Part shown: piece after piece, positions 6,257 through 52,978 of the stretch | Layout of the letters: each line of letters begins with the position of its first letter | How positions within the stretch are numbered: the first letter of the stretch is position 1 | IMG/VR virus record: IMGVR_UViG_3300037225_000325 | Span: 1 to 54,618 of that record | Length of the DNA stretch: 54,618 nucleotides | Origin: a virus | Taxonomy: Duplodnaviria; Caudoviricetes | Strand: one strand, 5' to 3' | Translations under genes and position numbers: made by a program | The notes under the pieces: model-generated | Database searches by the model: none | What the model saw: the letters and a program-made list of their open reading frames with translations, nothing else | Told to the model about the DNA's origin: nothing

Positions 6257-6355
6257 CTACTTCTTTTTGCCTTTCGACTTCACCGTTGTCTTGGCCTTCG
6301 GTGCATAGCCGAAGTGGCTCTGTGTCTTTGACACGCTAGCCTTCTTTTTAGTCAT
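6257..6355 (-). CDS. Lys-rich micro-protein (32 aa)
   Basis: MTKKKASVSKTQSHFGYAPKAKTTVKSKGKKK; RBS GGGAGGTG; start overlaps the end of the upstream GT gene. Confidence 0.55.
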   Translation of the reverse strand: MTKKKASVSKTQSHFGYAPKAKTTVKSKGKKK

Positions 6356-8999
6356 GAGTTCTCACCTCCCTTTTTAACGGGATGAAGTGACGTTCTTTAT
6401 CGAACGGCACGGTTTGGACTATCTTTGTGAGATGATCGGTTTGCCCATACACAAGGTCTTTGTCGAGGTTCCACGCTTCCTTGAACTTATCCCATGCCTC
6501 TATCATCTGGCGGTTGTAAGTAGTGTTGCCCCTCCCCTGCGGGCCACCTGTGTGGTGAATATACATCCCATTATCTATCAGGACCTGCAGTCCGGAAAGG
6601 AAACACCTGATTGTATAGTCTTCATCGTCAAACCCGAATGGCCCGAACGACCTTATATCGCCGATGGTATCAAGACATTGCCTCGTGACAAACCAGAAAA
6701 ATGATGGCATCCTTGATATGCTCCACAACTGTCCTTTGTGGGCGGGGTCATTCGACCATTTCTCAGCGAAGGCTTCGAGGTCCGCTATGTCACCATTATA
6801 GGTGACGGGGATATCTATTTGCTGCGGACCGGACACGTAATTTGAACGAGGACCGATGATGCCGACGTTTGGGATAACGCTAGTCCAATACAGGCATTTG
6901 TCGGCCCAACCTTTTGTCAGAATGACATCATTGTCCATAACAACAACGTCTTTTCCCTTCGCTTCTCCGAAGAGCCTTGACCTTGCGGCAGGGACGCCTA
7001 CGTTCTCGCTCAACTCAATAAGTCTTATATCCGTCTGTTCCCTTAAGTAACCAAGGCTTGCATCGGTAGACCCGTTGTCGAGAACAATAATTTCATAGCT
7101 GTGGTTCCCGATAGTACGTCTTACCGAGTCGAGACACTTCTGAATATGACCATCTCCGTTGTAATTGGGGATCAACAGAGATATTTCAGGTTGTTTTTCC
7201 TCTGAATAAGCTGTGCCGTTCGGGAGGAGGTAGGAAAGGTCAACCTCTTCGTGAACCCCCTTCGGGACATAATCGTCAAACTTGCCGATATCGATCCTGT
7301 AGCCTTTGTCAAAGAGCGCAGCGAGGCGTTCTATGGAGTATCTTGAATCCCTCCCGCTCTTGTTACCTGTAAAGATGGTCTGGACCTTATTAAGCGGGTT
7401 TGCAAAGGCGCGTGAGTTGCCGTCAAAAAGAAGGAGAGGTCTGGTATCCTTGAATTGATCTTTGCTCCAATCAAGGAAAGCTTCAAGAGTATTCGGGTTT
7501 GAGTAGGCAGGCATTTCAAGCAACGGGAGTACATCGGCTACCCGATATATGGAAGATGAGAGATCAAAAGGGTATCCAAAGTCTAAGTCATGATCCGCCC
7601 AGGGATACTTCCATGTTTCCGGCGCTGTTTGAGCCGTGTCCAGCATGTAACAGTGGGTCGTGTTCCAGCCCAGTCGTAGGGATACGACTAGAAGTTTCGG
7701 GTCGTCGTCTAATTCATAAACGCAATCCTTAGCAGAGAAGTCCTTCACAAAAACCGTATCGTCAGTCAGGAACAGGACGTAATCGTAGCCTTCGACGGCA
7801 GAGAGGAGGTCGGATCGGAAGTCGGTATCTCTGGTAAATTGGGCATTGATTGGATACGGTTCTCCTGGAACAGTCCTAGTGGGATTCCAGGTGTTCTGAT
7901 ACTGTTCATGAAACCTTACGCCCGAATCTGTCCATAAAACATGGATCTTCATGCTGTCAAGGTCGCTACAATGTCTCGCCAAGCTTCGTAAGCATCCGTC
8001 CAACTGCATCGCCCTGTCCTTGCTGAATATCACACAGACCGTATCCTTTGTCGGGGCCGTCTTGACCATCATCTCCTCCCTTTTTGGTGCAGCGTATTCG
8101 ATAATCTCCTGGTACAGTGTTTCCCAGGAATACTTTCTCAGGCCTCCGTCCCTTACCCACTGGTCCATCCGATCTCTATAGGCACGTATCCTATCAGTGC
8201 TGCGGAGGAGTTCGGAGAGCCGGGCATCGAGCTCCTTATACGACGTGAAATGCCTGAAGTCGATGAATAGGTTTCGGGGAATGTGGTCAATGATATCTGG
8301 GGCTCCAAGATAGATGGGGATGGTGCCCGCTTCGATGCAGTCCAGAATCTTCTCCGTCACATAACCTTGGGCGAGTTCCGGATGATTCGTGTTTTCAAAA
8401 CATAGGCTGAAGACGTACCTGCTGAGAGTCGTCAGCTTATTCCCCTTTGGTATCTCCCCCCTGTAATTGGGGAGGTTGAAGGAAGGCACGCCGTAAACAT
8501 CGAAGGGTATGTCGGAATTATCATCCCACCACTTAGCCGCTTCAAGGCGCTTGCTGTAAAGTTCGGACGGTACACGGGAAGACTTGTTCCCCGCTATCAT
8601 GCAAATTCCGGTCGTGCGAGGATTGGCAGGATAGAGTTTTTTCCTGCTTGATGCCGACTCGGTCATGGTCCCCTCTGTCGTGGGCCATCCTGATCGCGTA
8701 TAAGGCACGTAGGTGAACTTTTCGGGCTGAAGCAGGGTAAGTGCCTTGAAGTGGGTGAAGATATGGTCGAAGCAATCCCAGAGCGCAAAATTGTACTGTT
8801 CTGGAGTTACCACTACTGGCTCTGACAAGAAAAGGAAATTGAACCCTGGTTGCCTCTGCTTGAAGCTGTATGAGTTCAGATAGAGATACGCCACGCAACC
8901 GGGAATGGCCTCTCTTGAAAACTGAAATGTGTGGCCTCCATATTCGACCGTCCGCTCTTCATCCGGAGCGATATGGGCGTAGACAATGTTTGTTTTCAT
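6348..8999 (-). CDS. Trimodular glycosyltransferase: GT10 (fucosyltransferase-like) + GT-A domain + GT2
   Basis: FSLCFENT...GYVTEKILD...GTIPIYLG matches the GT10 motif. The middle domain has IFSKDRAMQLD...FLTDD. The C-terminal GT2 has LLIPNYNG...DNGSTD...MDND...DDEDY. Confidence 0.85.
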   Translation of the reverse strand: MKTNIVYAHIAPDEERTVEYGGHTFQFSREAIPGCVAYLYLNSYSFKQRQPGFNFLFLSEPVVVTPEQYNFALWDCFDHIFTHFKALTLLQPEKFTYVPYTRSGWPTTEGTMTESASSRKKLYPANPRTTGICMIAGNKSSRVPSELYSKRLEAAKWWDDNSDIPFDVYGVPSFNLPNYRGEIPKGNKLTTLSRYVFSLCFENTNHPELAQGYVTEKILDCIEAGTIPIYLGAPDIIDHIPRNLFIDFRHFTSYKELDARLSELLRSTDRIRAYRDRMDQWVRDGGLRKYSWETLYQEIIEYAAPKREEMMVKTAPTKDTVCVIFSKDRAMQLDGCLRSLARHCSDLDSMKIHVLWTDSGVRFHEQYQNTWNPTRTVPGEPYPINAQFTRDTDFRSDLLSAVEGYDYVLFLTDDTVFVKDFSAKDCVYELDDDPKLLVVSLRLGWNTTHCYMLDTAQTAPETWKYPWADHDLDFGYPFDLSSSIYRVADVLPLLEMPAYSNPNTLEAFLDWSKDQFKDTRPLLLFDGNSRAFANPLNKVQTIFTGNKSGRDSRYSIERLAALFDKGYRIDIGKFDDYVPKGVHEEVDLSYLLPNGTAYSEEKQPEISLLIPNYNGDGHIQKCLDSVRRTIGNHSYEIIVLDNGSTDASLGYLREQTDIRLIELSENVGVPAARSRLFGEAKGKDVVVMDNDVILTKGWADKCLYWTSVIPNVGIIGPRSNYVSGPQQIDIPVTYNGDIADLEAFAEKWSNDPAHKGQLWSISRMPSFFWFVTRQCLDTIGDIRSFGPFGFDDEDYTIRCFLSGLQVLIDNGMYIHHTGGPQGRGNTTYNRQMIEAWDKFKEAWNLDKDLVYGQTDHLTKIVQTVPFDKERHFIPLKREVRTHD

Positions 9000-9720: not shown

Positions 9721-10707
9721 TTAGTACGCCTTGTCCTTTTTCAGAAAAGGCAAGCCCCTATTCGCAGCACCTTCGGAAAACTCCTGCCACCGCTGTTGAT
9801 TCAGCACGTTCCCCTCACTCCCGCATATCGCAGAGAGCATCTTGGCTGCTTCTTTGAAGTCCGCATTAAATCCCAGGCATTCAAGGAGCAATTCCTTTGC
9901 CCGTTCAATCTCTGTCGTCTGCCCCGCTCCCGCCATGTTGAGATATGCCCAGGCAGTAGAGTGCAACGCATCGGGGTAGTGCTGGGTGAATTTACCCAGC
10001 TTCCTGCTATTGCGCCTGAATCTCTCCCCCCAATAGATCGCGCTCGGGAGATCAACCACAGCAAAATACTCCCTGACGGCAAGATATTGAAGCCTCAAAT
10101 CATTAGGATCAGCAGCAAGCTCCTCTCTCAAGATCGCCAGGTCTCGCGCCGTGTTTGGTCTGGGCTGGTATTGAATCATGATGGGGGGGGAGGGAGTAAA
10201 TGCGGCATACGGCGTGTATCTCGCCTCGTGAATCCTCCCCGCAAAATACATATTGCTGTTGTTTCGGAACGCTTTCTCCCTTGGAAATTTTCCACCACAG
10301 TTGTCGTACAGAACGCAGTTGACCACATCTATCTCGGGAGCCACGGTGTCGATTGCATATTTCAGGGCTGCAATAGCCCCCTTATCGGGGCGCTCGTCGG
10401 CGTCCATAAAAAGAATCCAGTCCGTATTGAGCAAATCGAATGACTTGTTGCGGGCCGCTGAGAAATCCACGCCGGTATAATCAGGCGGGGCCGGCCAGTT
10501 AAACTCACCTACCGATAATCTTTTTATTCCCATCTCCCGGAGAATATCGACCGTTTTGTCGTGCGAACCAGTGTCAACAACCGAAATCTGATCTACTCCT
10601 TTGCAGGCTTCAATACACTGCTTTATCTCGTTCTCCTCATTTTTGACAATCAAAGCCAGTCCGAGCGTCTGTCTCATCCTCCCTTTGCTTCCCTTAACCA
10701 GCTCCAT
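9721..10707 (-). CDS. GT2 glycosyltransferase with TPR-like C-terminus (SunS/flagellin-glycosyltransferase type)
   Basis: LIVKNEE...VVDTGSHDKT...DFSAARN...WILFMDADE...GRIHE motifs, followed by a helical repeat tail. Confidence 0.85.
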   Translation of the reverse strand: MELVKGSKGRMRQTLGLALIVKNEENEIKQCIEACKGVDQISVVDTGSHDKTVDILREMGIKRLSVGEFNWPAPPDYTGVDFSAARNKSFDLLNTDWILFMDADERPDKGAIAALKYAIDTVAPEIDVVNCVLYDNCGGKFPREKAFRNNSNMYFAGRIHEARYTPYAAFTPSPPIMIQYQPRPNTARDLAILREELAADPNDLRLQYLAVREYFAVVDLPSAIYWGERFRRNSRKLGKFTQHYPDALHSTAWAYLNMAGAGQTTEIERAKELLLECLGFNADFKEAAKMLSAICGSEGNVLNQQRWQEFSEGAANRGLPFLKKDKAY

Positions 10708-12611: not shown

Positions 12612-13868
12612 TTACCCCGTAATTCTGCAGATAAGCTCAGGCCTGGTGCAAGCATATCCGGCCAGCACGTCGGCCCTTGCCGGGAACTGAGTGTTCGTGA
12701 TGTCGTAAGCCCTGACAATGAGGATCGAGATGTTCTGATAGGACTCACGGGCTGCAAAGTCAACGCCCGAAGGCATCACGAGGTCAGCCGTCGCCATAGT
12801 GAAGGCATCGCCGTGGAATGCAAGGTTGACCGGGTAGTATGTCGCGCTCGAACCGGAAAGCAGAGTGATCGCCCCGCCCGTTGCCGGGGAAGCATTGACC
12901 GTGCCGTATGCGGAGCCCGAAACGGCGGGTGTGATCGCCGGGTAGATAGGAATGGTCATGTTCCCGCCGCCGTCCGCCGTAGCGTTTGAGGTCACAACAA
13001 ACGTGGCGTTGTAGCCCGTGTTCGGTTTCTGGTTTTCGGGGTTCACATGGTAAATCCCGGCAACCATGATAATCTCACCCGCATTCAGGACCGAGCCCGC
13101 CGTCCATCCATTTGTGAGAAGGTTGGAGCCGACCTGTGAAGCACCATTTACGAGGACAGTTCCGCTTCGTGTCCCGGTGAGCAGGGTATTGATGTTCTGG
13201 TCCATCGCCCAATCAAAGTCAAGCGCATGGATCATGACGCCCTGCATGTACTGTTCGGCAATTTGTTTACTGGATTCGTAGAGGCCGGACAGACCCTTCA
13301 CCGTAGCCGCCATGGCCCACTGATTTACGATGATTTCCCTTCTCTTGTCCCTTGGCGCCGACATGCCGTCGAGAAGTGCGCCGGCATAGAGAGGCCAGTC
13401 GGGGCTGCTGTAGTCGAGAAGGATATTTGCAACTGGGGTCCATCCTGCCGTTCCCGGAAGCGTACCAGCCGTTCCCATCTGCATGAAGCCGTTATAGCCG
13501 AGCCCGAGGGCATCGATATCCATAGCGGTCGCCATCGCGGGAAGAGCAGGGTCGAGAACCTGTTTCCTGAAGTTCTGGACGGACAGGGAAAGTTCGTTCT
13601 GGGTGAAGTTAAGGCCCACCTGATACTGATACTGCAAAGTGAGCGGCACAGTATCTTCCTGGAAAGACTGAACGACCAGGGCGGACTGCCTGCTGACGGT
13701 AGGTCTCCATGGACGCTTGATGTTGAAGTTTGAGCCTATCTTGGCGCCTTCTTTCTTGAACTCGGCGTTGTACTGCTTGTCGATAACCTGAATCAACTTC
13801 GCATTGTTGTGAAGAACATCGATAGCATTGATTGCTACCTCTGTGCTGGTTAGTGTTTTGTTTGGCAT
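12612..13868 (-). CDS. Major capsid protein, P22 gp5 family
   Basis: 418 aa with AKIG...IKRP, NLAFHGDAFTMATADL and YDITNTQFPARADVLAGY...RPEL motifs. Confidence 0.9.
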   Translation of the reverse strand: MPNKTLTSTEVAINAIDVLHNNAKLIQVIDKQYNAEFKKEGAKIGSNFNIKRPWRPTVSRQSALVVQSFQEDTVPLTLQYQYQVGLNFTQNELSLSVQNFRKQVLDPALPAMATAMDIDALGLGYNGFMQMGTAGTLPGTAGWTPVANILLDYSSPDWPLYAGALLDGMSAPRDKRREIIVNQWAMAATVKGLSGLYESSKQIAEQYMQGVMIHALDFDWAMDQNINTLLTGTRSGTVLVNGASQVGSNLLTNGWTAGSVLNAGEIIMVAGIYHVNPENQKPNTGYNATFVVTSNATADGGGNMTIPIYPAITPAVSGSAYGTVNASPATGGAITLLSGSSATYYPVNLAFHGDAFTMATADLVMPSGVDFAARESYQNISILIVRAYDITNTQFPARADVLAGYACTRPELICRITG

Positions 13869-13883: not shown

Positions 13884-14810
13884 TTATGCTTTCTGAGCCC
13901 TCACCCTCTTGATATATTCATCGGGGTTGGTCTTGGCGAGTTCCGAAAGGTCGCCGGAAACCACCGTCCCGTTATTTCCACCAACGGGGGTATGGGGAAC
14001 AGGAGCTTTACTTCTGGGTTTTGCGGTTGTCGGGGTATTTTCAAGCGCCCCGATGATTTTTCCAAGTTCCAAAAATACGGTAAAGGGGTTCCCTCCGGGC
14101 TTTTCAACCCACTGTCCATTCTGTTGCACGAGAGGGGCAAGGTTATAAATGCGCTTCGCTTCGTCCCTGTTTTCGTGAAGATAACGGATCAGTTGAGGCC
14201 CTTCCTCCCGCATCATGATTACGGCACGCATAGCGGTTGACATAGGCAAAGTCGGGTCTTCGGCGATTTCCGCGATAGCAGGATCTTCTTCGGCTGCTTT
14301 CTTCATGCGGTCCTGATGCGCCGTAATGACCTTATTGACTTGCTCGGCTTGGCTCGTCTGGGCGATCCTCCCCTGAAGCTCCTGCACCGCCTGGTGTTTG
14401 CCCATTTCGATAAGCCATGTATCCTTGGCGTCCTCGTAGGCTTCCCAGTCGGGGAAATCTTCAGGCTTCGGTTTTGCAGGCGGTCCTGCGGCTGGTGCAG
14501 CCACCTGGGGCGGCTGAACGGTCTGTTCTGCAGGAGGCTTGATCGTACCTTCCGAACGGCCCTTCCAGTATTCCCGCTGTGCGACAAGTTCATTGATGCG
14601 GTCTTCGGCGGTCTTCGGCTTTTTCACCGGTACTGTCGAGGGTGCGGCTTCCTTGGTTTCATCCGTGGTTTCGACAGGGGGTGTCTCTGTTGAGGTTGAC
14701 GGCTCCGCCGTCTGCGGCTGGTCGGAAGTCTGATCTCCCGTTACTTCTGGTCCTGCGGTTGACGGGTCCGCCGTTTCGTCTATCGTGCCATCCTGCACGG
14801 GTTCTGCCAT
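13884..14810 (-). CDS. Scaffolding protein
   Basis: Acidic/Pro-rich N-terminus, PKPEDFPDWEAYEDA, coiled coil, C-terminal KAPVP...DEYIKRVR. Directly upstream of the coat gene. Confidence 0.8.
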   Translation of the reverse strand: MAEPVQDGTIDETADPSTAGPEVTGDQTSDQPQTAEPSTSTETPPVETTDETKEAAPSTVPVKKPKTAEDRINELVAQREYWKGRSEGTIKPPAEQTVQPPQVAAPAAGPPAKPKPEDFPDWEAYEDAKDTWLIEMGKHQAVQELQGRIAQTSQAEQVNKVITAHQDRMKKAAEEDPAIAEIAEDPTLPMSTAMRAVIMMREEGPQLIRYLHENRDEAKRIYNLAPLVQQNGQWVEKPGGNPFTVFLELGKIIGALENTPTTAKPRSKAPVPHTPVGGNNGTVVSGDLSELAKTNPDEYIKRVRAQKA

Positions 14811-14828
14811 AATCGATCTCCTTTGAAC

Positions 14829-14870
14829 AAAAAATAAGGGCTACTCACCACTTTCATGGCGGTAGCCCTT
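14829..14870 (-). terminator. Rho-independent terminator-like hairpin upstream of the scaffold gene
   Basis: Minus strand AAGGGCTAC-CGCCATGAAAGTGGTGA-GTAGCCCTT followed by ATTTTTT. Confidence 0.6.
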
Positions 14871-14895
14871 TGGGTCTCCTATTTTGAGACTTAGG

Positions 14896-14925
14896 GTTCC
14901 AATCCACGCCCCGCTCGGGGGCGAC
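14896..14925 (-). CRISPR. Solitary type I-C CRISPR-repeat-like unit (no array, no cas genes)
   Basis: Minus strand GTCGCCCCCGAGCGGGGCGTGGATTGGAAC, versus the canonical I-C pattern GTCGC-stem-GCGTGGATTGAAAC. 6-bp CGCCCC/GGGGCG stem. Only one copy seen. Confidence 0.7.
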
Positions 14926-14931
14926 TAAAGA

Positions 14932-15096
14932 CTATTCTTTATCTTCCTCCCGTCTGCTGTAAGGCTTCGGCATGTCAACAACAAACATTTTTTTAATCTT
15001 TCCAGCCTCTTCCCTTTCGATGGTTCTGAATGAAGCTGCCCGCTGAAGAAGCATGGCATGTTCTATTTTCAAAAAACATTCTAACACATCATTCAT
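14932..15096 (-). CDS. Hypothetical protein (54 aa)
   Basis: Manual translation MNDVLECFLKIEHAMLLQRAASF...; ATGA overlap with the upstream gene. Confidence 0.5.
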   Translation of the reverse strand: MNDVLECFLKIEHAMLLQRAASFRTIEREEAGKIKKMFVVDMPKPYSRREEDKE

Positions 15097-15419
15097 TCCG
15101 CCAACTCCCTTAACCTCCGTTGAAGTCCTTGAAGCATTTTGATCAGGTCTACAACGTCTTTTCTCTTCAGTGAGACGCTTACTGTCTCCTTATGGCTATA
15201 CACCCTGTTGGGGGGCAAGTCAAGAAGTTTCTTTGTATCAACAGCATAATCTGACGAACACTCTCGCGAATGCCTGGGAGGAGCGTGTAGAATATTTTCA
15301 AAGTAGTCCAATTGTATTTCCTCCGGAGTCATGCCAGTACCCTCCTCACCTGTCCCCTTTGCGTCAGATACATGCTTTCTTCCCACTCTTTCCTGGTAGG
15401 ACGGCCTGAGTTTTTCCAT
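15093..15419 (-). CDS. Hypothetical protein
   Basis: 108-aa ORF co-oriented within the head operon. Confidence 0.5.
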   Translation of the reverse strand: MEKLRPSYQERVGRKHVSDAKGTGEEGTGMTPEEIQLDYFENILHAPPRHSRECSSDYAVDTKKLLDLPPNRVYSHKETVSVSLKRKDVVDLIKMLQGLQRRLRELAE

Positions 15420-15715
15420 GTGAGAACTTCCCCTTCTGAGGTTATGGTTCCCATTATCTCATCCTCGCGCGTGACCATGAGTTCTTCGCCTTCATAGGTG
15501 AGCTGCATGGCCCTGGCAGTGTCGATGATCACCCTGTCGCCCACGTGAAGAGACATGGGGATGAACTTCCCCTTGTCGGTGATACGGCCCGGCCCGGTGA
15601 CGATGATCGTTCCGCTCCATAAGGTAGATTGGTAAACTTCCGGGACGAAAATGCTGCCTATCTTCTCGATGGGGGGGTCACATTTCACAATCACTTTATC
15701 CTGATTCGTTCTCAT
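15329..15715 (-). CDS. groES: Co-chaperonin GroES-like protein
   Basis: DKVIVK...GSIFVP...GTIIVTGPGR...G.FIPMSLHVGDRV...EGEELMVTREDEIMG follows the GroES pattern. Confidence 0.85.
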   Translation of the reverse strand: MRTNQDKVIVKCDPPIEKIGSIFVPEVYQSTLWSGTIIVTGPGRITDKGKFIPMSLHVGDRVIIDTARAMQLTYEGEELMVTREDEIMGTITSEGEVLTWKNSGRPTRKEWEESMYLTQRGQVRRVLA

Positions 15716-16063: not shown

Positions 16064-18490
16064 TTATTCTCCTCCCGGGGAGAAAACATCGGAGATCGCC
16101 TGCAACGCAATTCTCCTGACTTCCTTGTCGGTCTTATCTGATTCCTTGGCCATCTCCAGCAACTTCGCCTTCGTCTGGAGCATGATGTTTTGTTCCTTAA
16201 TTTTGGCGTTGTTCTGCTTGAGTTCTTCCGTCTTCGCCTTCTGCATGAGGAGTTGCATCTGGGGGGGGACGGGCGGCTGAGGACGGGCGGGTTCCCCTTC
16301 TTTCGGGGGTAGTATGTGGGGCGGGATCATCCGTCTTAGTGTGTCGGCATACTCACCACCGTCAGCGAGGTTCATGTTTTTGACAGTGAAGTATTTATCC
16401 ACGGGGTTCATCTTCTGACCCTGTGTCGCCACAATCATCATCTGTTCTGCCGCCTCTTCCCTGGCTGTGCTGAACGGAGGGCCAACCTTAATAATAACAT
16501 CGTAGTCGCCCTTAGACAAGTCATTGTATTTTGACTTCGGCTCATCCTTCACGTGGGGCTGTAATTCCTTGGGATCAATCCCGGTGTACCGCCCTGGTGC
16601 CTTCTGGATTTTCTTGAACGCTTCCGCATACGGCGTGTTGACCGGCATGAATGAAAGGGTCTGGTCCTCTTCGCCCAGCATCACTCGAACATCTCGTGGA
16701 GTATCGTAGACTTCCGGTATCATCTCGTTTATGATACGTCCCCCGTGGGTAATGCCCCGGTGAAGGTTGTCTATGAACGCGAAAGTTCCAACATCGGAAG
16801 GCGCCCTCTTTCCTCTTACGGCGGCCCCGGTTCGGGAAGGGTCTTCGGAGGCCATGGTATCGGACCGCGACATCCCCACGGCATCCTCTATGTAGGCACG
16901 CACATCCGCCGCATACTGGAACAACTGCACAGGCATCGTACCAACGCCTACCCTCGTGGGAGGGGGGATGAGGTGGCTATTCCCATTATCATCGACCAGT
17001 ACCTGAGCTTTATAGGGCAGCCACGCATAGTTCTGGATGTTAGCAGCCTGATAGAAATGGTCGAAGGGCTGGATCTGTTCCGGCGTTCCTATCCATGGGC
17101 TATGCGGCAACATGGCTGTAAGTTCGCCCTTGCTCGTCTCTACCCAGTTGAGAAGCCTTTGCGGGTCTTTTGCGTTCCTTATGAGGCTTCGGGTGATCGA
17201 CTTGCCATCAAGGTTTTTCTCCGGACCTTTGACGATAATAACCGGGATGTACCGGCCTGGTATATCGTTGGGGCCGTCAAGTATTTGGTCGGGGGCAATA
17301 GCATAATGCTTCACCTTCGGAACCTTCTTCGTGGCCTTCTTGCTTATCTTGAGGCTGTCGGGCAATGGCGGCATGGTAAAATCAGGAGTCGGCGGAACGG
17401 CGTCCGGCATTGGTTTGGGAACGACGGGAACGGGGCTGCCGCCTGTCGGAGGAACCATAGCGGGAGCAGGGCCAGTTGGCATCCCCGGCTGAGGCTGGGA
17501 AGGCACTGGAGAGAAGGAACCCAACCCCAACCGGGACCCGCCCATCCCGGGCTGAGCAGGCGCTCCCAACGCGCCGGCTGGTGGTTGTGCGGGCATGGCC
17601 GAGGTAAGCATCCTTGCCATCTGTTTCATCTCAAGGGCTTCCTTTTGTTTTTCCTCCCACTGTTTCTTCTTCTCCTTCACTTCTTCTTCGAGGAGGATGT
17701 CATCGTTTTCCATGAGGCAAAATGTTTTTTCTTCCTCTTCAACAACATAGTAATCGGCAATCCAAAACGCGTCTTCTTCAAACCAAAGCTCCATACTTGA
17801 GCCGCCGCGAGACTTGAAGTCCTCTACGTCGGGGACTTTCTTGCTGGGGTATCTTTCCTCAAAATCATCATTCGAAATCTTCTCAAGGATGAAAAGGTAC
17901 TTTCCGTCTGAATACACCTGCGATGTGGCATGACTGTCGGGATAGACGAGAAGTGGATTCTTGATTCTCTGCATGTAGATTTCTTGAAGAAAAGGATTGT
18001 CCTCGCAATAGCGGGTAAGGATTCTCCATGCCCCATACCCGCAACTGGCCATCATCTCCCCGGCATAGTCGTAAATCGCATCGGCTTCCGAATCGTATTC
18101 GATGCCATGAATGATCGCCTGCCTCGACTTCGCAATCTGCATGTTGCCTTCGGCGTCCGAGGGGATCACCTTGATGTGGGCCTTGTTAAGCCTCATCTCT
18201 CCGACAAGTTGGTTGACCGGGCGGTTCAGTTCATCCAAGGTAAGGCACGGACGCTTGAGAATCTTTCTGAGGGCTACGTCATCGCTCGACCACTGGTTTT
18301 CTCCGCCCATGAGAAATCTCTGATCATCGGCGGCGGCATCCCTATTCTCCTTGTCGGCCTTTACTTCGCGCTCGTAACGCTTCCGCATCTTCTCAAGAAA
18401 CTTCTTTGCCTTCTCCCCCTTGAGTTCATCTTTCTTCTTCTCCTCGGCTTCCTCTTCGCTTAGTGGCTTGTCTTTCTTGTTGTCATCCAT
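16064..18490 (-). CDS. Portal protein, P22 gp1-like, with Pro-rich insertion
   Basis: DDQRF..GENQW...RPCLT...GYGAWRI...KDPQRLLNW...G.YDV..KVGPPFSTAREEA motifs. Follows TerL. Confidence 0.9.
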   Translation of the reverse strand: MDDNKKDKPLSEEEAEEKKKDELKGEKAKKFLEKMRKRYEREVKADKENRDAAADDQRFLMGGENQWSSDDVALRKILKRPCLTLDELNRPVNQLVGEMRLNKAHIKVIPSDAEGNMQIAKSRQAIIHGIEYDSEADAIYDYAGEMMASCGYGAWRILTRYCEDNPFLQEIYMQRIKNPLLVYPDSHATSQVYSDGKYLFILEKISNDDFEERYPSKKVPDVEDFKSRGGSSMELWFEEDAFWIADYYVVEEEEKTFCLMENDDILLEEEVKEKKKQWEEKQKEALEMKQMARMLTSAMPAQPPAGALGAPAQPGMGGSRLGLGSFSPVPSQPQPGMPTGPAPAMVPPTGGSPVPVVPKPMPDAVPPTPDFTMPPLPDSLKISKKATKKVPKVKHYAIAPDQILDGPNDIPGRYIPVIIVKGPEKNLDGKSITRSLIRNAKDPQRLLNWVETSKGELTAMLPHSPWIGTPEQIQPFDHFYQAANIQNYAWLPYKAQVLVDDNGNSHLIPPPTRVGVGTMPVQLFQYAADVRAYIEDAVGMSRSDTMASEDPSRTGAAVRGKRAPSDVGTFAFIDNLHRGITHGGRIINEMIPEVYDTPRDVRVMLGEEDQTLSFMPVNTPYAEAFKKIQKAPGRYTGIDPKELQPHVKDEPKSKYNDLSKGDYDVIIKVGPPFSTAREEAAEQMMIVATQGQKMNPVDKYFTVKNMNLADGGEYADTLRRMIPPHILPPKEGEPARPQPPVPPQMQLLMQKAKTEELKQNNAKIKEQNIMLQTKAKLLEMAKESDKTDKEVRRIALQAISDVFSPGGE

Positions 18491-18508: not shown

Positions 18509-20584
18509 TCATTCCATCGGCACCGAAAGAGGCGCATCAAGTCTCGCGATGAGTTCTTGATATTGGTCCCCCTTGTCTTCCTCAAGATCGTGGTACTTCA
18601 GCCCGGTCTGACTGAAGCGGCCTATGCACTCAGGAAAGTGACCGCCGTCCGAGGGTTTCCCGTTGTCCTCATAGACCCACCGCTCTATCTGTTTTATGGT
18701 TTCAGTACAATGCGCCTGCACGAAGAACAGCGGCGGCTCGTGAGTCATCCACTCATCGACCTTGGCAATGTAGTTCTTTTCGGCCTTGGACCCTGACCGG
18801 AGTTTGAGCTTGTATTTCTTCAGGAGACGCTGGATTTCGTCAAAGGAATCCTCACTCTGTCCAAATCGGTTTTTGGCATATGACGAATCACCTTTTGCCA
18901 AGGCATCTATCTCTATCCATTCTTCGAGGCGCCACGATTCCCTCTTCCACCTTCTCACTATGTTATCAACTATCTCGCTGTTTCTAAGGTGGTCCCATAC
19001 TTCATCGACAATAAAGTTCCTTCCCCACGGGTCTACCGCACGGAAGGAGATTGCGATGTTCTCGTTCGGATGAAAGTCGATCTGGACATCTACCGGCCAA
19101 TCCGTAGGCACGCTGAAGTCTTTCACCCTGTGAACATCAAGCACAAAGTGCTTCCAGCACCTTCCCATAAGGTGCTTTGGTTCCCCGAACACCCGGGGGA
19201 TGCGCTCTGAATCATCCTCCAACTCCTTGATGAAGCGATGTATCTGGAGCTTCTGTAGGACATAGACAAGGGCATCCTGTATGAACTCCTGTCCGAACTC
19301 GTTGACGAAGGTGACAGTCTTGTTCCCGACCCAATCCTTGATAAGTTTTTCCGTCTCGGGGAGATTCTTGGTTTGGCGGGCTTCCTGCTTCTGCACGACG
19401 AGGATGCTCTTAGCCTGCTCATCTGTAAGCCCAGCCTTCATGAGAACGTTCATATCGTTGTCGTAGAGGTGAGGGGCATCCCAAAGGGAGATATTCGCTA
19501 TCACCTTCACGTCAGCTCTTTGTGCGAGAATGAGTTCATCAAATATCCATGCCTCCTTCAGGGGTGTCATCGACATGAAGACGCGACCTCCCGTCATGAA
19601 AAGACCACGGGACATTCCAACCCAGATAGGCTTCGGAGGCGGCTCATCTGCCCACCATGCCGTTGCTTTAAAAGACTCAAACAAATCCTTATCCTGCCGG
19701 TATGTCCTCAAAGCGAATGTGCTTCCCGTAGGCTTGTGTTTCCAGTCGGTTTCTATTCCTACGTTGTTCTTGCTTGTCTCCCATTCCCCGTCCTTGCTGT
19801 TGTTAGCCCCAACGGCAAACCTCTTTAAAATCGGGACCAGCACCTTCCCTGCGTGCTCTTCCCAATCCTCCCCGGTGATGATGATGTCAACCGGTGGCTT
19901 TATTCCGAGGCTTGACGGCATGAAGAACTTATCCCCTATCCGAACGGCTCCCTTGAAGGTATCGGGCACGGGGTTCCATGGTTCGTACCCCTTCGCCCAT
20001 GAATGGACGAGAGCGGCGCCCGTATACGATTTTCCCACCTTATTGCTCACTGGGTTTATCACTATCAAAAACCCTTCCCGAAAAGCTTCCATGGTAGCCT
20101 GCTGGTACGAATAGGGGCGGAAGAACTCTATCTGGTGAGACTGGATGTAGTCGTTCAGGAATACAATCCTTCCGTATTCCTTGCGCTCGATCTGCTCCTC
20201 TCCTTCCTGAAGGGCGGCCAGCACGCGGGAAAGCTCCTCGGGGTCGTTGTTGATTTGTTGCAGAAACTTTTCGGCAGCATTCTCTTCCTTCTCTGTGGGG
20301 ACTTTGTCGAGAATGTCCATGTGCGGAGAAGAAAGGATTTTCTTTATCGGGGAGGGAATGGTCTTTGCCCTGGCGGGCTTCTTCGGAAGGAGAGCGGCGA
20401 TTTTTCTTCTTTCTTCCCTATTTCTCCTTCTCCTGTCTATCCCCTTTTCCTTCCGGGTCTGCTTCTTTAGGGGTTTGCCGGCGGCCTTGGCAGCGTAATA
20501 TTTTTCCCAATAGCGAGCACGGCCCTCTGCGGCCCTCTGCTTGAGTTCAGGATCTGCAAACCCCGGCCCGTGCTTCTTCGGCAC
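18509..20584 (-). CDS. terL: Terminase large subunit
   Basis: Walker A-like SNKVGKS, Walker B WWADEPPP, motif III SMTP, and a nuclease domain with IDFHP. Upstream of portal. Confidence 0.85.
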   Translation of the reverse strand: MPKKHGPGFADPELKQRAAEGRARYWEKYYAAKAAGKPLKKQTRKEKGIDRRRRNREERRKIAALLPKKPARAKTIPSPIKKILSSPHMDILDKVPTEKEENAAEKFLQQINNDPEELSRVLAALQEGEEQIERKEYGRIVFLNDYIQSHQIEFFRPYSYQQATMEAFREGFLIVINPVSNKVGKSYTGAALVHSWAKGYEPWNPVPDTFKGAVRIGDKFFMPSSLGIKPPVDIIITGEDWEEHAGKVLVPILKRFAVGANNSKDGEWETSKNNVGIETDWKHKPTGSTFALRTYRQDKDLFESFKATAWWADEPPPKPIWVGMSRGLFMTGGRVFMSMTPLKEAWIFDELILAQRADVKVIANISLWDAPHLYDNDMNVLMKAGLTDEQAKSILVVQKQEARQTKNLPETEKLIKDWVGNKTVTFVNEFGQEFIQDALVYVLQKLQIHRFIKELEDDSERIPRVFGEPKHLMGRCWKHFVLDVHRVKDFSVPTDWPVDVQIDFHPNENIAISFRAVDPWGRNFIVDEVWDHLRNSEIVDNIVRRWKRESWRLEEWIEIDALAKGDSSYAKNRFGQSEDSFDEIQRLLKKYKLKLRSGSKAEKNYIAKVDEWMTHEPPLFFVQAHCTETIKQIERWVYEDNGKPSDGGHFPECIGRFSQTGLKYHDLEEDKGDQYQELIARLDAPLSVPME

Positions 20585-36829: not shown

Positions 36830-39013
36830 ATGAACTATAAGGATTTTCTCACCTCTAAGCGTCTCATTGTAGGATCATCGGGCATATCGGTTTATGATTC
36901 CGACATCCATCAGATGCTATTTCCCTTTCAGCGTGACCTTGTTAGATGGGCCTGCAAGAAAGGCAAGTCTGCCATTTTTGCAGATACCGGCCTTGGCAAG
37001 ACCTTCATGCAACTTGAATGGGCACGGCTCATGGCCAAGAAGGCCTTCATAGTCGCCCCTCTCTCCGTGGCAAGGCAGACAGTCAAGGAAGCGCAAAAGA
37101 TAGGCATCACGGTCAATTACTGCCGTTCCCAGGCGCAAACCACGGACGGCCTGAATATCACCAACTATGAAATGATAGAAGCGTTTGACCCCTCAGCCTT
37201 CGATGCCGTGGTCCTTGATGAATCATCCATTTTGAAATCAATAGCAGGGAAGATAAAAGCCAAAATGATAGAAATGTTCGCGGAGACCCCTTATCGTCTA
37301 TGCTGTACGGCTACCCCGGCCCCGAATGACATAGCTGAGATTGCCAACCATGCGGAGTTTTTGGGTATTATGTCGCGGGTAGATATGCTTGCAACCTTCT
37401 TTGTCCATGACGATGAAGGGTGGCGGCTTAAAGGCCATGCTGAAGAACCGTTCTACCGATGGATGGCATCGTGGGGCATGTCGATCAGAAAACCGTCAGA
37501 CCTCGGATACGATGACGATGGGTACATTTTACCGCCTCTTACGATTGAGCCGGTGTTTGTCGATACGACTGTGGCCCCGGATGGTCAGTTATTCTTTACT
37601 GGCTTGAAGGGCATAACTGACAGGTCTGCGGTACGGAAGGCGACCGTGCATGACCGGATGACTTTGGCCGCGTCTCTCGTCAACGGTGACGGGGAACAAT
37701 GGATTATATGGTGCGGATTGAACGATGAGGCCGATGGAATAGCGCGGCTTCTGTCGGATTCAGTCAACATTAAGGGGTCCATGTCGATTGAGGCAAAGAT
37801 AGCAGGGATTGAAGGGTTTCAAGATGGAATGATAAGGACGCTCATTTCAAAACCAAAAATAGCCGGGCATGGCCTGAATATGCAAATGTGCCATAACATG
37901 GTATTTCTCGGGCTGTCTGATTCCTACGAGGCCTATTATCAGTGCATCAGACGCTGTTATCGATTCGGACAGACCAAGCCCGTAAGGGTCTTTATCGTCC
38001 TGTCTGAAATGGAGCGGGATATTTTCAGGAATGTTCAAAACAAGGAAAGGGAGGCCCGGAAGATGGGAGACCGATTGATCGAACACGTTAAACAGTACGA
38101 GAAGGCGGAGATTGAAGAACTGGGCATGGAGTTTATCTACGAGACGGAGACCGTTAAGCACGATGAATACACGATGATGCTCGGTGATTCCGTGGAGAGG
38201 ATGAAGGAAATACGGAATAACTCCATCGGATTATCGGTGTTTTCGCCGCCGTTCATGTCGCTGTACACCTATTCCCCCACTGAGCACGACGTAGGAAATA
38301 GTCGGGGAGAAGAAGAGTTTTTCGGTCACTTCGGGTTTATCATGGACGAGTTGAAGCGCGTCACCAAGCCGGGACGGTTGTGTTGCGTCCATGTTGCCCA
38401 AGTCCCTGCCATGCTTGTCCGTGACGGGTATATCGGGATGAAAGATTTCAGAGGCAAAACCATCATGGCTTACGAGGACCACGGATGGATTTATCAGGGC
38501 GAGTGTTGCATCGACAAAGACCCCCAAGCCCAGGCCATCAGGACACATAGCAAGGGTTTGTTGTTCGCTCAGTTGAAGCGGGATGCCTCATGGCTACGTC
38601 CCGCCCTTGCCGATTACATTCTGGTATTCAGGGCACCAGGAGACAACGAAAGCGCTATCCTTCCAGACCTTACAAATGATGAATGGATCGAGTTCGCAAG
38701 GCCTATTTGGTATGGAATCCGAGAGACAGACACCTTGAACTTCACTGAGGCCCGTACCGACAAAGATGAGCGGCATATATGCCCCTTACAGCTTGGCACG
38801 ATAGAGCGGTGTATCCGGCTTTGGAGTAATGCAGGCGATACCGTCCTGTCTCCTTTCGCCGGGATAGGGTCAGAGGGGTATCAGGCTTTGAAACTTGGCA
38901 GGAGGTTTGTAGGTATCGAATTGAAGAAGGCGTACTACCAGACAGCCCTGAAAAACCTTGAATTGGCCCTGAAAGAACGGAATGCCGGGACACTCTTCGA
39001 GGCCACTCTATGA
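36830..39013 (+). CDS. SNF2-like helicase fused to an N4/N6 DNA methyltransferase
   Basis: DTGLGKT, LDES, TAT and RCYRFGQ helicase motifs; SPPF catalytic and PFAGIGS SAM-binding motifs. Confidence 0.9.
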   Translation: MNYKDFLTSKRLIVGSSGISVYDSDIHQMLFPFQRDLVRWACKKGKSAIFADTGLGKTFMQLEWARLMAKKAFIVAPLSVARQTVKEAQKIGITVNYCRSQAQTTDGLNITNYEMIEAFDPSAFDAVVLDESSILKSIAGKIKAKMIEMFAETPYRLCCTATPAPNDIAEIANHAEFLGIMSRVDMLATFFVHDDEGWRLKGHAEEPFYRWMASWGMSIRKPSDLGYDDDGYILPPLTIEPVFVDTTVAPDGQLFFTGLKGITDRSAVRKATVHDRMTLAASLVNGDGEQWIIWCGLNDEADGIARLLSDSVNIKGSMSIEAKIAGIEGFQDGMIRTLISKPKIAGHGLNMQMCHNMVFLGLSDSYEAYYQCIRRCYRFGQTKPVRVFIVLSEMERDIFRNVQNKEREARKMGDRLIEHVKQYEKAEIEELGMEFIYETETVKHDEYTMMLGDSVERMKEIRNNSIGLSVFSPPFMSLYTYSPTEHDVGNSRGEEEFFGHFGFIMDELKRVTKPGRLCCVHVAQVPAMLVRDGYIGMKDFRGKTIMAYEDHGWIYQGECCIDKDPQAQAIRTHSKGLLFAQLKRDASWLRPALADYILVFRAPGDNESAILPDLTNDEWIEFARPIWYGIRETDTLNFTEARTDKDERHICPLQLGTIERCIRLWSNAGDTVLSPFAGIGSEGYQALKLGRRFVGIELKKAYYQTALKNLELALKERNAGTLFEATL

Positions 39014-45429: not shown

Positions 45430-47535
45430 CTACATCCCAAAGCCCACCGCGGATTGCGCCAGGGACTGAGTTCCTCCTGCATCCGTTAGCACGACCTCGT
45501 TCCCCCCTCCATCCGTGACCCTCACGGTCCCGGTTTGGTCAAACACATTCGCCTTTCCCGTGTAGAGTCCGACCCCGGCCAGGAGTCCCCTCGCGGGAGA
45601 GCCGAACATTGTCTTAAAATTGCCGTTTGCAGGGTCAACCCACAGCGGATCACCATAGCGGCTATGAGATTCAGCACTGGCCTGCACTCCGTCGATCCCT
45701 GCCATCGCAACGTCAGCCTGGACCGCTGTTCTGTAGGCATTAAAATCGGTATAACCAGTGCCTTTGAAATTTGCTACATTGCCGCCATTGGGGCACCAGT
45801 ACACGTTATAGTCGATGTAGACACTGTTGATTGTTCCCCCGTTGGAAGCGATTACAACTGCTGTCCCTGAGTCTTTATCTGTGTGAATAGGGGTCCTATT
45901 TCTTATGACGAGTCCAGCCACCTTGACGTTGGCATTAGTCCCCGCCGATGGCTGAACATGAAAAGCGTGGCCGGCATAGGCAGCAGGGGTGTTGGAAGAC
46001 GAGGGAAGGTGGTCTATAGATATGTTTTGGAAGGCATCCTTTGTCACTCCGTTGGCACTTCCGTATGTCCCTACCCCGTTGACAATCATATCGTAGACAA
46101 TTCCCCACGTAAAACTATTACCTCCAGCCGCTCCGGTAACGGCATTGAGGCTCGGGCCTTGATAAGAATTGTACTGTTTGAATCTGGTAAGAGTATTCCC
46201 TGCCGAATTACCGCTAATCGACAGAAGACCACTCCCTCCTCCACTTCCACCGTAAGGATAGAATGACGTGGGGTAGGTAAAGGGCCAACTGCTGTCAGCC
46301 GTATAGCCGAGGTTGTATCCAGTAATATCGCTGAACGTGAAATTATTTCCGACTATCGAAATGCCTACACCTCTGATGTTATGAAAAAGAAGGTTCGAGC
46401 CAGTTGTCCCGCTTGCGCCGGTTGACAGGCCATACGCCCCGTTAGCTGCGCCCAAGTTATAGAATTGCTCATTGGTAAAACTTACAGTACCAGAAAATGT
46501 AGCCGCCATTGACATTCCGTTTAGGGCATCGTGGTACTTATTTCCGCTGGACGTGACCGGTCCCGTAGACGTCCCGTAGTAGTTTACAACGCTGGACCCT
46601 ACAAGTGTGACGGCACTGAAGTCGCTGTTTGTCACAGTTATCCCAGACGATCCAATGTCTCTGAACCAACCTTCATAGTTTGACCCGACGCCAGGTCCAA
46701 CAATGGTGACACCTGATACCGTAGGGCCGTTAGCCTGGTATAGATACAAAACTGTCCCAGCGGCGTACTTTATCGTACTATTTAGATAAGACGTGCTAAC
46801 CATCGCAGTCCCGTCAAAAATAGTAGCAGAATTGCCACCTTCCATATCGAGGTTAATCCACGACCTGTAGTTATGCTGATTCAGGACTGAGTAGTTTTTG
46901 TTGCTTGCGAGTATTGTCCCAGTGGTCGGGTCTTCTCCCACGTTGACATAGAGTAGCGTGCCTGTCGTTTTCCAGCAGACATGATTTGAGGTGGGAGTGG
47001 TGCAGCTTGCGTTGTCTTTCGTGTCAACCGTGAGGAAGATATCTGAACCGGCCTTGCGGTACACAGCGACCTTAACCTCTGTATCTGCCGTTGTATGGTA
47101 GACGTTGCTGCCGTCTGAGGTCCATGACAGGGTAGCAGGATCATAGAAGGCATACAGCTTTGGTTTCGCTCCTGTTCCGTAACTCGTAGTTGTAATCGTA
47201 TCATTACTGGCTGCCGTTCCCCCAGCTCCAGTGGTGGCGTAAAAGCTGTACCAAGTGTCCCCAGAGTTCATATATACGATCTCTCCGTGAGACAGGGTAC
47301 AGGCTTCGTTGCCGGACTTGTTGACGTCTTCAGGATGGTGCAGCCAGGGAGAGGCAAGCGTTCCGCTGTTGCTCGTGGCTCCTGCCGCTGCCACCCAGTA
47401 ACAGCGAGTCACAGTTGCGGGACAGGTTCCCGCGCCGCCAGCCGTCCCGTAGCCACCAGACACACAGGTCGCGGCGTGGCTGAACCCTGCCAGCACCAGA
47501 AAGATTGCAAGAGAAAGAAAGAGTTTGAGTTTCAT
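45430..47535 (-). CDS. Signal-peptide-bearing pectin-lyase-like beta-helix protein
   Basis: MKLKLFLSLAIFLVLAGFSHA signal; SNSGTLASPW, GDTWY, YGTGAKP, DYNVYW and DPLWVDPANGNF..GSPA motifs; RBS AGGAGG. Confidence 0.75.
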   Translation of the reverse strand: MKLKLFLSLAIFLVLAGFSHAATCVSGGYGTAGGAGTCPATVTRCYWVAAAGATSNSGTLASPWLHHPEDVNKSGNEACTLSHGEIVYMNSGDTWYSFYATTGAGGTAASNDTITTTSYGTGAKPKLYAFYDPATLSWTSDGSNVYHTTADTEVKVAVYRKAGSDIFLTVDTKDNASCTTPTSNHVCWKTTGTLLYVNVGEDPTTGTILASNKNYSVLNQHNYRSWINLDMEGGNSATIFDGTAMVSTSYLNSTIKYAAGTVLYLYQANGPTVSGVTIVGPGVGSNYEGWFRDIGSSGITVTNSDFSAVTLVGSSVVNYYGTSTGPVTSSGNKYHDALNGMSMAATFSGTVSFTNEQFYNLGAANGAYGLSTGASGTTGSNLLFHNIRGVGISIVGNNFTFSDITGYNLGYTADSSWPFTYPTSFYPYGGSGGGSGLLSISGNSAGNTLTRFKQYNSYQGPSLNAVTGAAGGNSFTWGIVYDMIVNGVGTYGSANGVTKDAFQNISIDHLPSSSNTPAAYAGHAFHVQPSAGTNANVKVAGLVIRNRTPIHTDKDSGTAVVIASNGGTINSVYIDYNVYWCPNGGNVANFKGTGYTDFNAYRTAVQADVAMAGIDGVQASAESHSRYGDPLWVDPANGNFKTMFGSPARGLLAGVGLYTGKANVFDQTGTVRVTDGGGNEVVLTDAGGTQSLAQSAVGFGM

Positions 47536-47545
47536 GGTGGCCCTC

Positions 47546-48574
47546 CTAATTCCCCGTCCAGGAACCGTTCTGACCAAGCAAATCCCAATAACCTGTCACT
47601 TCACACCCAAGAGTAATAGCGGTCTGTCGCACAGTTCCAGATATGATACCACCCGTACAGGTAGCTCCTGCCCCCGCCCCTGTGCAACATGCCCACGGAG
47701 CACCGGCGGCAGTACAGGATGTGGCTCCTGCCCAGTTAGTTGCGGCAAAGTAAAAAGTATCTGTCCCGTTTGGCCTTAGCTGAATCGTCTGTGCTGCAAT
47801 CACCATTTTCGATACCACCGTGCCAGCTACGGCTGGAGGCAATCCAATTATCTTGGTTGCCGTGGCTCCTGAGTTATTGCCTATGATAATTTGGGCATTG
47901 GGAACTTTCTTAACGGATACCGAAGATAGGACATAATTCACAGCCTCGCTTGCTACCTGAGAGAATACAGGGTCGGTTGTGTCCGCTGCTCCTGCCTTGA
48001 TATACCAAACCAACGTTCCGACAGTGGGAATGAATGTTGTTCCTGTCACGCCGCCCAAGGACACTCGGAACCCTGTGCCTGGAGTTGTAACGGCACTAAA
48101 GGTGGCCGTGACCATGTAGGTCGCACCCGCTTCGATTCCCATAGCGACGGTTTTGCTGAATGAGTTGGCCCCGTTAGTGGTGTCGTTGATAGTCATAGTG
48201 CCCGCTGCTTCCGCGAAGTACCCTGCACCTACAGTATGATGGACAACCGTATAGGCCGGGGCAGCTCCAAAAGCCGCAGCAAGTTCACTTCCTCTCGTCA
48301 GACCGACAGCAAGAGGGGGAGAGTAGCCTGTATAGGTCGCAAAGCCGCCCGTGGTATTTACCGCAGTAGCAAGCGCCGTCGCCACTCCCGTTCCCGGCGT
48401 GATTCCACCTAACGCTGTCCCACCGCTATTGGTCTGGATGTCGCCTGCAGAGCCGCCGGGGGTGGCAGAGCCGGAAGAGCCGCCACTATCGAACCCCCAG
48501 CCGAAAGCATATACGTTAGATGACGCCCACAGGGTAAAGAATGCGATAAGTATGAAACTGAGTAGTTTTTTCAT
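47546..48574 (-). CDS. Signal-peptide-bearing fibre-like protein with a Cys-rich motif
   Basis: MKKLLSFILIAFFTLWASSNVYA signal; PGGSAGDIQTN and GTGVATALA fibre motifs; CTAAGAPWACCTGAGAGATC. Confidence 0.7.
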   Translation of the reverse strand: MKKLLSFILIAFFTLWASSNVYAFGWGFDSGGSSGSATPGGSAGDIQTNSGGTALGGITPGTGVATALATAVNTTGGFATYTGYSPPLAVGLTRGSELAAAFGAAPAYTVVHHTVGAGYFAEAAGTMTINDTTNGANSFSKTVAMGIEAGATYMVTATFSAVTTPGTGFRVSLGGVTGTTFIPTVGTLVWYIKAGAADTTDPVFSQVASEAVNYVLSSVSVKKVPNAQIIIGNNSGATATKIIGLPPAVAGTVVSKMVIAAQTIQLRPNGTDTFYFAATNWAGATSCTAAGAPWACCTGAGAGATCTGGIISGTVRQTAITLGCEVTGYWDLLGQNGSWTGN

Positions 48575-48577
48575 GGT

Positions 48578-52969: not shown

Positions 52970-52978
52970 AATGTTCTC

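Follow-up and report, generated by a model that had tools for sequence, protein, structure and literature searches.

The virus record IMGVR_UViG_3300037225_000325 of IMG/VR, a linear DNA of 54,618 bp with a CheckV completeness of about 67%, was analysed as a whole and is called the window in the following. Its head operon contains a single 30-nt CRISPR repeat of the type I-C class, which stands in sense orientation between a small orphan open reading frame (ORF) of 54 amino acids (aa) and the gene of the head scaffolding protein. The best reading of this element, to which we give an even chance, is that of a solitary repeat unit (SRU) acting as an RNA anti-CRISPR of the Racr type, i.e. as a decoy for the Cas proteins of a host with a type I-C system. 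A Racr-type role had already been proposed in a preliminary description of the DNA. We kept it as the leading reading on the grounds of a layout like that of acrIC5-RacrIC1 and of the I-C geometry of the repeat.

Sequence, fold and class of the repeat

The repeat and the two structures that follow it lie in a 121-nt intergenic stretch, which separates the 54-aa ORF (15096-14932) from the scaffold gene (14810-13884):

14896-14925, minus strand: solitary type I-C-like CRISPR repeat of 30 nt, GTCGCCCCCGAGCGGGGCGTGGATTGGAAC (sequence, fold and array comparison)
14874-14890, minus strand: hairpin GUCUC-AAAAUAG-GAGAC (RNA fold; same stem in the related locus L140)
14829-14868, minus strand: intrinsic-terminator-like stem with one bulge, then UUAUUUUUU; 19 nt 5' of the scaffold start codon (RNA fold)

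Read along the minus strand the order is the stop codon TAG of the 54-aa ORF, tcttta, GTCGCCCCCGAGCGGGGCGTGGATTGGAAC, CCTAA, GTCTC-AAAATAG-GAGAC, CCAAA, the long bulged stem, TTATTTTTT, 19 nt and the ATG of the scaffold gene. The repeat itself consists of a GU overhang (14925-14924), a stem-loop (14923-14907) with a stem of 6 bp and the pentaloop CGAGC, and an 11-nt tail, UGGAUUGGAAC (14906-14896), which starts with UGG. The RNA fold of 14935-14811 had three separate hairpins, i.e. the repeat, GUCUC/GAGAC and the long stem. Its minimum free energy of -46 kcal/mol (z = -3.76) was equalled by 0/200 shuffles. The GTCTC/GAGAC hairpin and the ensuing terminator-like stem with a U-tract, both of which the preliminary description had read from the letters, were recovered in this fold. 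A simple terminator scanner did not call the stem at 14829-14868 because of its bulge.

The element is a solitary repeat unit and not a CRISPR array. With up to 3 mismatches allowed, the 30-mer occurs just once in the window; a match of any kind was seen in 0/100 shuffles. A second repeat was not found in the 150 nt on either side, where the best local alignments of the 30-mer scored 8-9/30. Six-frame searches of the window detected neither Cas5d (PF09704) nor Cas1 (PF01867), and there was no Cas protein among the ORFs searched (40 in PHROGs, 22 in Pfam and 10 in PADLOC, which covered small ORFs only in part). The earlier statement that there is neither a second repeat nor a cas gene thus held.

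The class of the repeat was examined with the pattern GTCGCCCC-N3-7-GGGGCGTGGATTGRAAY, which fixes 25 positions, the first 8 and the last 17 of the 30-mer, and frees the loop. It matched at least 120 bacterial or archaeal genome loci. The loci listed, most of them multi-copy arrays, together hold 61 distinct repeats in 1170 copies. The length of these listed copies was 32 nt in 1119/1170, 31 nt in 31 and 29 nt in 18, with one copy each of 30 and 28 nt; their tails ended in GAAAC (1120 copies), GAAAT (33), GGAAC (16) or GGAAT (1). The tail of the phage copy departs from the commonest one at tail position 8 alone, where A is replaced by G; this change is also present in 17/1170 listed copies, 14 of them in the locus L099. 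The nearest array repeats among the listed matches are 3 edits away from the phage copy, and the 14-copy repeat of L099 with its GGAAC tail is among these; the commonest repeat is 4 edits away. Cas genes beside the arrays were examined at one locus, L099, where an array of 16 repeats lies directly 3' of Cas1, Cas4, Cas7, Csd1 (Cas8c) and Cas5d on the same strand (Pfam, E = 1e-21 to 1e-151). Thus both the class of the repeat and its reading direction are those of type I-C. The preliminary description had suggested a comparison of the 30-mer with known CRISPR repeats, in which a near match of type I-C would speak for its reading. The class assignment stood, while an identical repeat was not among the matches.

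Compared with the commonest 32-nt repeat the phage copy is without one C and one G. The loss of these two bases removes one whole base pair, so that the hairpin is preserved. A 6-bp stem is also found in L021, which has 18 copies of a 29-nt repeat. In the substrate of Cas5c, the processing enzyme also called Cas5d, a 7-nt stem with a pentaloop is flanked by overhangs of 2 nt (5') and 11 nt (3') (PMC8524198). Recognition relies on U-G-G right after the cut, on the base of the stem and on the 3' overhang, while the loop and the 5' overhang tolerate change (PMC8524198). The phage copy fits this geometry with a stem that is one pair under the 7 bp of the examples in PMC8524198. From the same work we infer a Cas5c cut between 14907 and 14906.

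Rfam did not yield a match at the gathering score. CRISPR-DR9 aligned exactly on 14896-14925 in a search of 551 bases, yet its score of 15.6 bits (gathering 45, E = 1.8) is too weak. In IMG/VR a looser pattern built on the GGAAC tail, with 17 fixed bases, matched 18 loci, nearly all of them without a stem. By chance the pattern with 25 fixed bases is expected to be about 4^8-fold rarer than the one with 17. Yet it matched 45 viral and at least 120 genome loci, an excess which indicates that the resemblance to I-C repeats is by descent. The sequence at 14925-14896, the geometry and the matching loci together bear out the earlier view of a solitary I-C-like repeat on the sense strand, 6 nt after a stop codon.

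Genomic setting and insertion of the repeat

The genes around the repeat are all on the minus strand, and the repeat has their sense orientation:

16064-18490, minus strand: P22-like portal gene (PF16510, E = 7e-114)
15329-15715, minus strand: Cpn10/GroES-like co-chaperonin gene between portal and scaffold (PF00166, E = 1.7e-14)
15195-15223, minus strand: sigma-70-like promoter candidate, TTGACT-N17-TATAGC, about 270 nt 5' of the repeat, within the 79-aa ORF (conservation)
15093-15332, minus strand: 79-aa ORF, in ATGA overlap with the Cpn10-like gene
14932-15096, minus strand: 54-aa orphan ORF, stop codon TAG 6 nt 5' of the repeat
13884-14810, minus strand: head scaffolding protein gene, immediately 3' of the leader (phrog_8865, E = 2.7e-23)
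12612-13868, minus strand: P22-like major capsid (coat) protein gene (PF11651, E = 1.3e-28; phrog_283, E = 1.7e-56)

Searches with the coat protein identified seven distinct related loci; L142 is the same contig as L141 and was counted once. Coat identity to the window was 67-81% in L139, L140 and L141, 69-78% in L143, L144 and L146, and 34% in L145. The Cpn10/GroES-like gene is kept in relatives. An I-C-like repeat was present in 0/7 of the related loci, five of which cover the region before the scaffold gene. L140 was the one relative that could be aligned at this place. The alignment starts exactly one base 3' of the repeat, and there is no homology 5' of that point. The parts common to the window and L140 are C(C/T)TAAGTCTCAA, GAGACC(C)AAAGG, a terminator with a different stem sequence, GTTCAA(A)GGAGA, ATGGCAGAAC and the start of the scaffold gene; at the junction L140 reads ..GCCGTAG and then CTTAAGTCTC. 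A terminator made of a hairpin and a T-run is located at the same place in L139, L140 and L141, not in L143 and L146. Because L140 has the hairpin and terminator and is itself without the repeat, the GUCUC hairpin and the terminator belong, as judged from this alignment, to the ancestral leader sequence of the scaffold gene, not to an imported pseudo-spacer. The preliminary description had treated pseudo-spacer, hairpin and terminator as parts of the repeat unit, a view that we abandoned for the same reason. By the same comparison the newcomers in this phage are the 54-aa orphan ORF and the repeat. A 20-mer from the hairpin had 0 matches in viral contigs, and blastn of 14811-15223 against GenBank phages gave no match.

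Phage DNA was found in runs labelled peat metagenome from many studies, and contigs of at least 99% identity were obtained in the four runs compared. In run X7, which belongs to a different study from the probable source, a DNA contig spans 14650-15323 with one substitution (14741) and no indel. Thus the contig bridges the locus and the repeat is present in an independent sample. In the RNA libraries X18 and X20 contigs lie on 14565-14816, the 5' part of the scaffold gene, and on a few other pieces, with none on 14823-14939, although contigs cannot show absence. One X20 fragment stops at 14816 beside adapter sequence.

A TTGAC(A/T) box with a TATA-like box 17-18 nt further on follows the Cpn10-like gene in 6/6 sequences (window, L139, L140, L141, L143 and L146). 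From this conservation alone we infer a promoter at 15223-15195. A consensus promoter scanner did not call it because the -10 box is without the final T. In L143 and L146 the promoter-like site is directly 5' of the scaffold gene. L139, L140 and L141 have a short conserved peptide gene, the hairpin and the terminator, in this order, between the site and the scaffold gene. As its content differs across relatives, the interval from promoter to scaffold is, on sequence comparison, a variable accessory slot. The C-terminal peptide of the 79-aa ORF (..KRKDVVDLIKMLQGLQRRLRELAE) is kept as the short peptide gene of L139, L140 and L141; the 79-aa ORF matched no Pfam family at E <= 1. GC content is 0.40 in the 54-aa ORF and 0.45 in the 79-aa ORF, compared with 0.517 in the window and 0.559 in the scaffold gene.

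The arrangement of a short conserved peptide gene (..RKLxERL*), hairpin and terminator between promoter and scaffold occurs in 4/6 sequences. In L139 and L140 the ATG of the peptide is only about 8 nt after the -10 box, and the transcript may be leaderless. The layout is reminiscent of a moron slot, or of a late promoter whose short, terminated RNA depends on read-through.

Among 5.8 billion clusters a single homologue of the 54-aa protein was identified, P0002, a protein of 56 aa with 80% identity by BLASTP and 83% in a pairwise alignment. The ends of the two proteins are identical and they differ by an in-frame 2-codon indel, both of which speak for the 54-aa ORF as a real gene at the level of sequence. 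It was not found in the relatives' loci or in other viral contigs, and there was no credible match in Pfam, PDB or Atlas. An assignment to Glyco_hydro_1, the sole Pfam row, was rejected as below the cut-off (E = 0.14; 11 bits versus 22.6). The AlphaFold model is of low confidence (mean predicted local distance difference test, pLDDT, 67.8) and has one helix, residues 2-29. The ORF may code for an anti-CRISPR protein (Acr); an acr gene as neighbour is common for Racr RNAs but not required.

Several further features of the record were noted. Directly 5' of the portal gene, at the place expected of a large terminase, is a 691-aa ORF (18509-20584, minus strand) without a PHROG, Pfam or PADLOC match. 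Two glycosyltransferase-like genes, 9721-10707 and 6348-8999 (minus strand; PF00535 and a GtrB-like match), are located among the structural genes 3' of the coat gene. The stretch 45430-54583 (minus strand) holds six consecutive ORFs of 147-715 aa without a PHROG match, which probably code for tail or receptor-binding proteins of a kind not sampled so far; the only Pfam match there is a weak pectate-lyase-like one in 49163-51259. At 36830-39013 (plus strand) a protein of 727 aa is encoded in which an SNF2-type helicase is fused to a type II-like DNA methyltransferase (phrog_16, phrog_67; PADLOC MTase_II, E = 2e-28); it possibly serves in anti-restriction.

Proposed action and rival explanations

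We favor the view that a single I-C repeat was captured into the accessory slot of the head operon, with or next to the orphan 54-aa gene. The slot would be bounded by the conserved internal promoter and by the hairpin-terminator leader of the scaffold gene. Transcription in the sense direction could run from the promoter candidate to the terminator (about 360 nt) or arise by read-through from the portal gene. The repeat in this RNA would mimic host pre-CRISPR RNA (pre-crRNA), and the Cas5c of the host would bind and cut it between G19 and U20. Cas5c, probably together with Cas7 and Cas8c, would then be sequestered by a useless RNA made of the 11-nt handle and the structured leader, and the pool of functional Cascade would be lowered as with Racr-type RNA anti-CRISPRs. 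The handle-bearing product, i.e. the handle and 67 nt of structured leader up to the terminator, is the more likely sink, because by analogy Cas5c should stay with the 5' handle, unlike Cas6f, which stays on the hairpin. In this point our reading concurs with the cleavage product that the preliminary description had outlined. In support of a decoy, the repeat is intergenic, in sense and 6 nt 3' of a small orphan ORF.

A number of results weigh against this reading. The exact 30-mer had 0 matches in viral, genome and metagenome collections, and an array of the exact repeat was not present in the three collections, so that no cognate Cas5c is known. The alignment to the nearest listed real repeat covers 29/32 columns with 2 gaps and may miss the cut-offs of SRUFinder. 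Among 1102 spacers from 93 of the fetched I-C arrays there was no full-length match to the phage; the best match, 21/37 nt, is no better than chance with 1102 queries. In the Pfam, PDB and Atlas comparison no known Acr resembled the 54-aa ORF. Furthermore, the element is located in a late structural operon, with a promoter that is a candidate only; anti-CRISPRs are usually early genes. Finally, as Cas5c stays with the 5' handle, the mechanism of RacrIF1 is not simply transferable. If the decoy is right, a type I-C system whose repeats belong to the GTCGCCCC...GGGGCGTGGATTGRAAC class is predicted for the host, and the search for it becomes narrower. A host search with the coat profile was positive in 0/5 array-bearing genomes and in 1/401 genomes of one phylum, the latter with only a distant match.

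The repeat might instead be an inert relic, left by illegitimate recombination with a host array or carried along as a hitch-hiker of the 54-aa cassette, and by now a harmless intergenic hairpin. A single lineage-specific copy (0/7 relatives) in a slot of low GC, as in horizontally acquired morons, would be consistent with such an origin. So would the atypical length of 30 nt versus 32 nt in 1119/1170 listed copies and the GGAAC tail of only 16/1170, since terminal repeats of arrays are often degenerate. Evidence for a target, a host or expression was not found in the spacers, the fetched I-C loci and the contigs of the RNA libraries. Yet all positions known to matter for Cas5c are intact, and the base pair was lost on both arms with the stem being kept. 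The sense orientation, the unchanged copy in an independent sample and the recurrence of lone repeats of the same class in other viruses likewise speak against a relic, which we consider unlikely. A guide made from one repeat appears distinctly improbable. Here Cas5c would cut the RNA, and the handle plus leader would be loaded as a crRNA-like guide against relatives without the insert, or would repress a host promoter in the manner of Cracr RNAs. Viral I-C Cracr RNAs have been reported (bioRxiv 10.1101/2024.10.29.618823). The repeat abuts conserved phage sequence exactly where the homology to L140 begins, and it fills the position of the protospacer adjacent motif (PAM) on the phage's own DNA, so there would be no self-targeting. 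The PAM of type I-C is TTC, however, and the L140 bases before the common sequence are TAG (CTT one step in). Of the would-be guide, which is almost all hairpin and terminator, L140 matches no more than the first 12 nt or so, and there is no second repeat to set the 3' end of the guide. Neither the window nor 748,304 bases of fetched I-C loci contain TTC joined to the first 8 nt of the guide, and in the same DNA a 14-mer at up to 1 mismatch matched only itself.

Processing of the late mRNA by Cas5c is an explanation with very little probability. Expression would be tuned either by a Cas5c-capped scaffold-coat mRNA with a 5'-hydroxyl (5'-OH) end or by uncoupling from the upstream genes. The site does lie between the low-copy portal gene and the high-copy scaffold and coat genes, and a 5'-OH end made by Cas6f was more stable than a 5'-triphosphate (5'-PPP) transcript (PMC10651486). 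But a strong terminator between the cut site and the scaffold gene means that only read-through transcripts are concerned, relatives express the same genes without the repeat, and capsid synthesis that depends on a host defence enzyme would be fragile. The chance is extremely slight that the repeat serves recombination or integration, as a homology or attP-like site into a host array. Entry into arrays via SRUs is raised as a suggestion in the introduction of PMC10651486, and over 17 + 8 nt the phage copy hardly differs from array repeats. Against this stand a head operon that would be split by integration, the lack of an adjoining recombinase gene and the lack of an integrase among the 40 ORFs run against PHROGs, a search of a record that is about 67% complete with small ORFs only partly covered. 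We also think highly improbable a role of the exact position of the repeat at the 5' edge of the scaffold leader. In that case Cascade would assemble on the phage leader RNA, which would serve as a protein-free one-repeat guide against relatives or couple termination and read-through into scaffold and coat to the presence of I-C in the host. If this were true, the guide would hit competing relatives that keep the leader and are without the insert.

If the Racr-type decoy is active, the type I-C RNA anti-CRISPRs would gain an example from the environment (peat). Such mimics could then occupy an accessory slot inside a structural operon, and the neighbouring orphan gene would be a candidate for a new I-C anti-CRISPR protein.

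Lone repeats in other viruses and comparison with known systems

Lone repeats of the stem class described here are no rarity in IMG/VR. The 25-base pattern matched at 45 viral loci (L148-L192), with a single match in 34. Eleven of these were dropped, nine near contig ends and two with a second repeat tail nearby, which left 23 that are still lone. The 23 lone viral I-C repeats are in unrelated contigs, many of them just 5' of a ribosome-binding site and start codon; the loci L148 and L164 are identical. A small ORF followed by a repeat was considered as a general layout and rejected: an ORF of at least 40 aa ended up to 30 nt upstream in 6/23 compared with 492/4600 random positions (10.7%; binomial P = 0.03), yet these ORFs had 77-781 aa. 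As they are not Acr-sized, they lend no real support to such a layout. Among the 18 viral loci with a GGAAC tail L123 alone has a repeat-like stem; the rest look like chance, several being the same sequence in different contigs. At 6857-6887 (minus strand of the locus) L123 has a lone 31-nt I-C-like repeat with a GGAAC tail. The same 12 nt (GCAGTAGAGTTT) adjoin it on either side, and a terminator-like hairpin comes about 50 nt further on. This duplication might be a trace of the mode of insertion of such repeats.

In the Racr class viral solitary repeat units mimic the repeats of crRNA and tie up Cas proteins (PMC10651486). A search that included IMG/VR3 reported 2,103 viral SRUs; nine tested candidates inhibited CRISPR-Cas, and 83% of prophage SRUs agree with the host's subtype (PMC10651486). 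SRUFinder demands at least 90% identity, at least 90% coverage and a BLASTn bit score of at least 41.1 against a catalogue of 17,823 repeats (PMC10651486). Like the SRUs of this survey the repeat of the window is intergenic and full-length, is without a partial repeat within 100 bp and without cas genes, and belongs to an IMG/VR virus. It differs in its identity of about 90% to the nearest listed repeats with two gaps, which may miss the thresholds, and in not being immediately 3' of a promoter, the candidate being about 270 nt 5'.

The type I-F mimic RacrIF1 works through the product 5' of the cut. Bound by Cas6f, it nucleates a Cas7f filament without Cas5f and Cas8f, and this active part depends on Cas6f staying on the hairpin (PMC10651486). 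Cas5c on the other hand recognises and stays with the 5' handle, i.e. 3' of the cut (PMC8524198). The likeness to RacrIF1 is thus that of a repeat mimic competing with crRNA for Cas proteins, while in type I-C a different aberrant complex is expected, Cas5c being on the 5' handle. The viral Cracr RNAs and crlRNAs, which include I-C examples and form at least 9 PAM-proximal pairs with the host cas or creT promoter (Liu et al., bioRxiv 10.1101/2024.10.29.618823), are likewise phage-borne CRISPR-like RNAs. In the window, by contrast, the sequence after the repeat is the ancestral phage leader, and there was no Cracr-like target in the fetched I-C loci.

The closest parallel by layout is RacrIC1 of a Bifidobacterium pseudocatenulatum prophage, which lies 11 nt 3' of an acrIC5 homologue and is transcribed with it as a bicistronic RNA (Camara-Wilpert et al. 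2023, PMC10651486). RacrIC1 and the repeat of the window are each a solitary mimic of an I-C repeat in a phage genome, in sense orientation and a few nt 3' of a small gene (11 nt there, 6 here), without cas genes and without a second repeat. They differ in the upstream gene, which is an orphan here and not an AcrIC5 homologue, and in the locus, here a late head operon and not a recognised anti-defence locus. As solitary repeat units and RacrIC1 are already published, no new principle is involved. What is particular to this phage is the position of the repeat in the head operon at the edge of a conserved leader, with an orphan gene adjoining.

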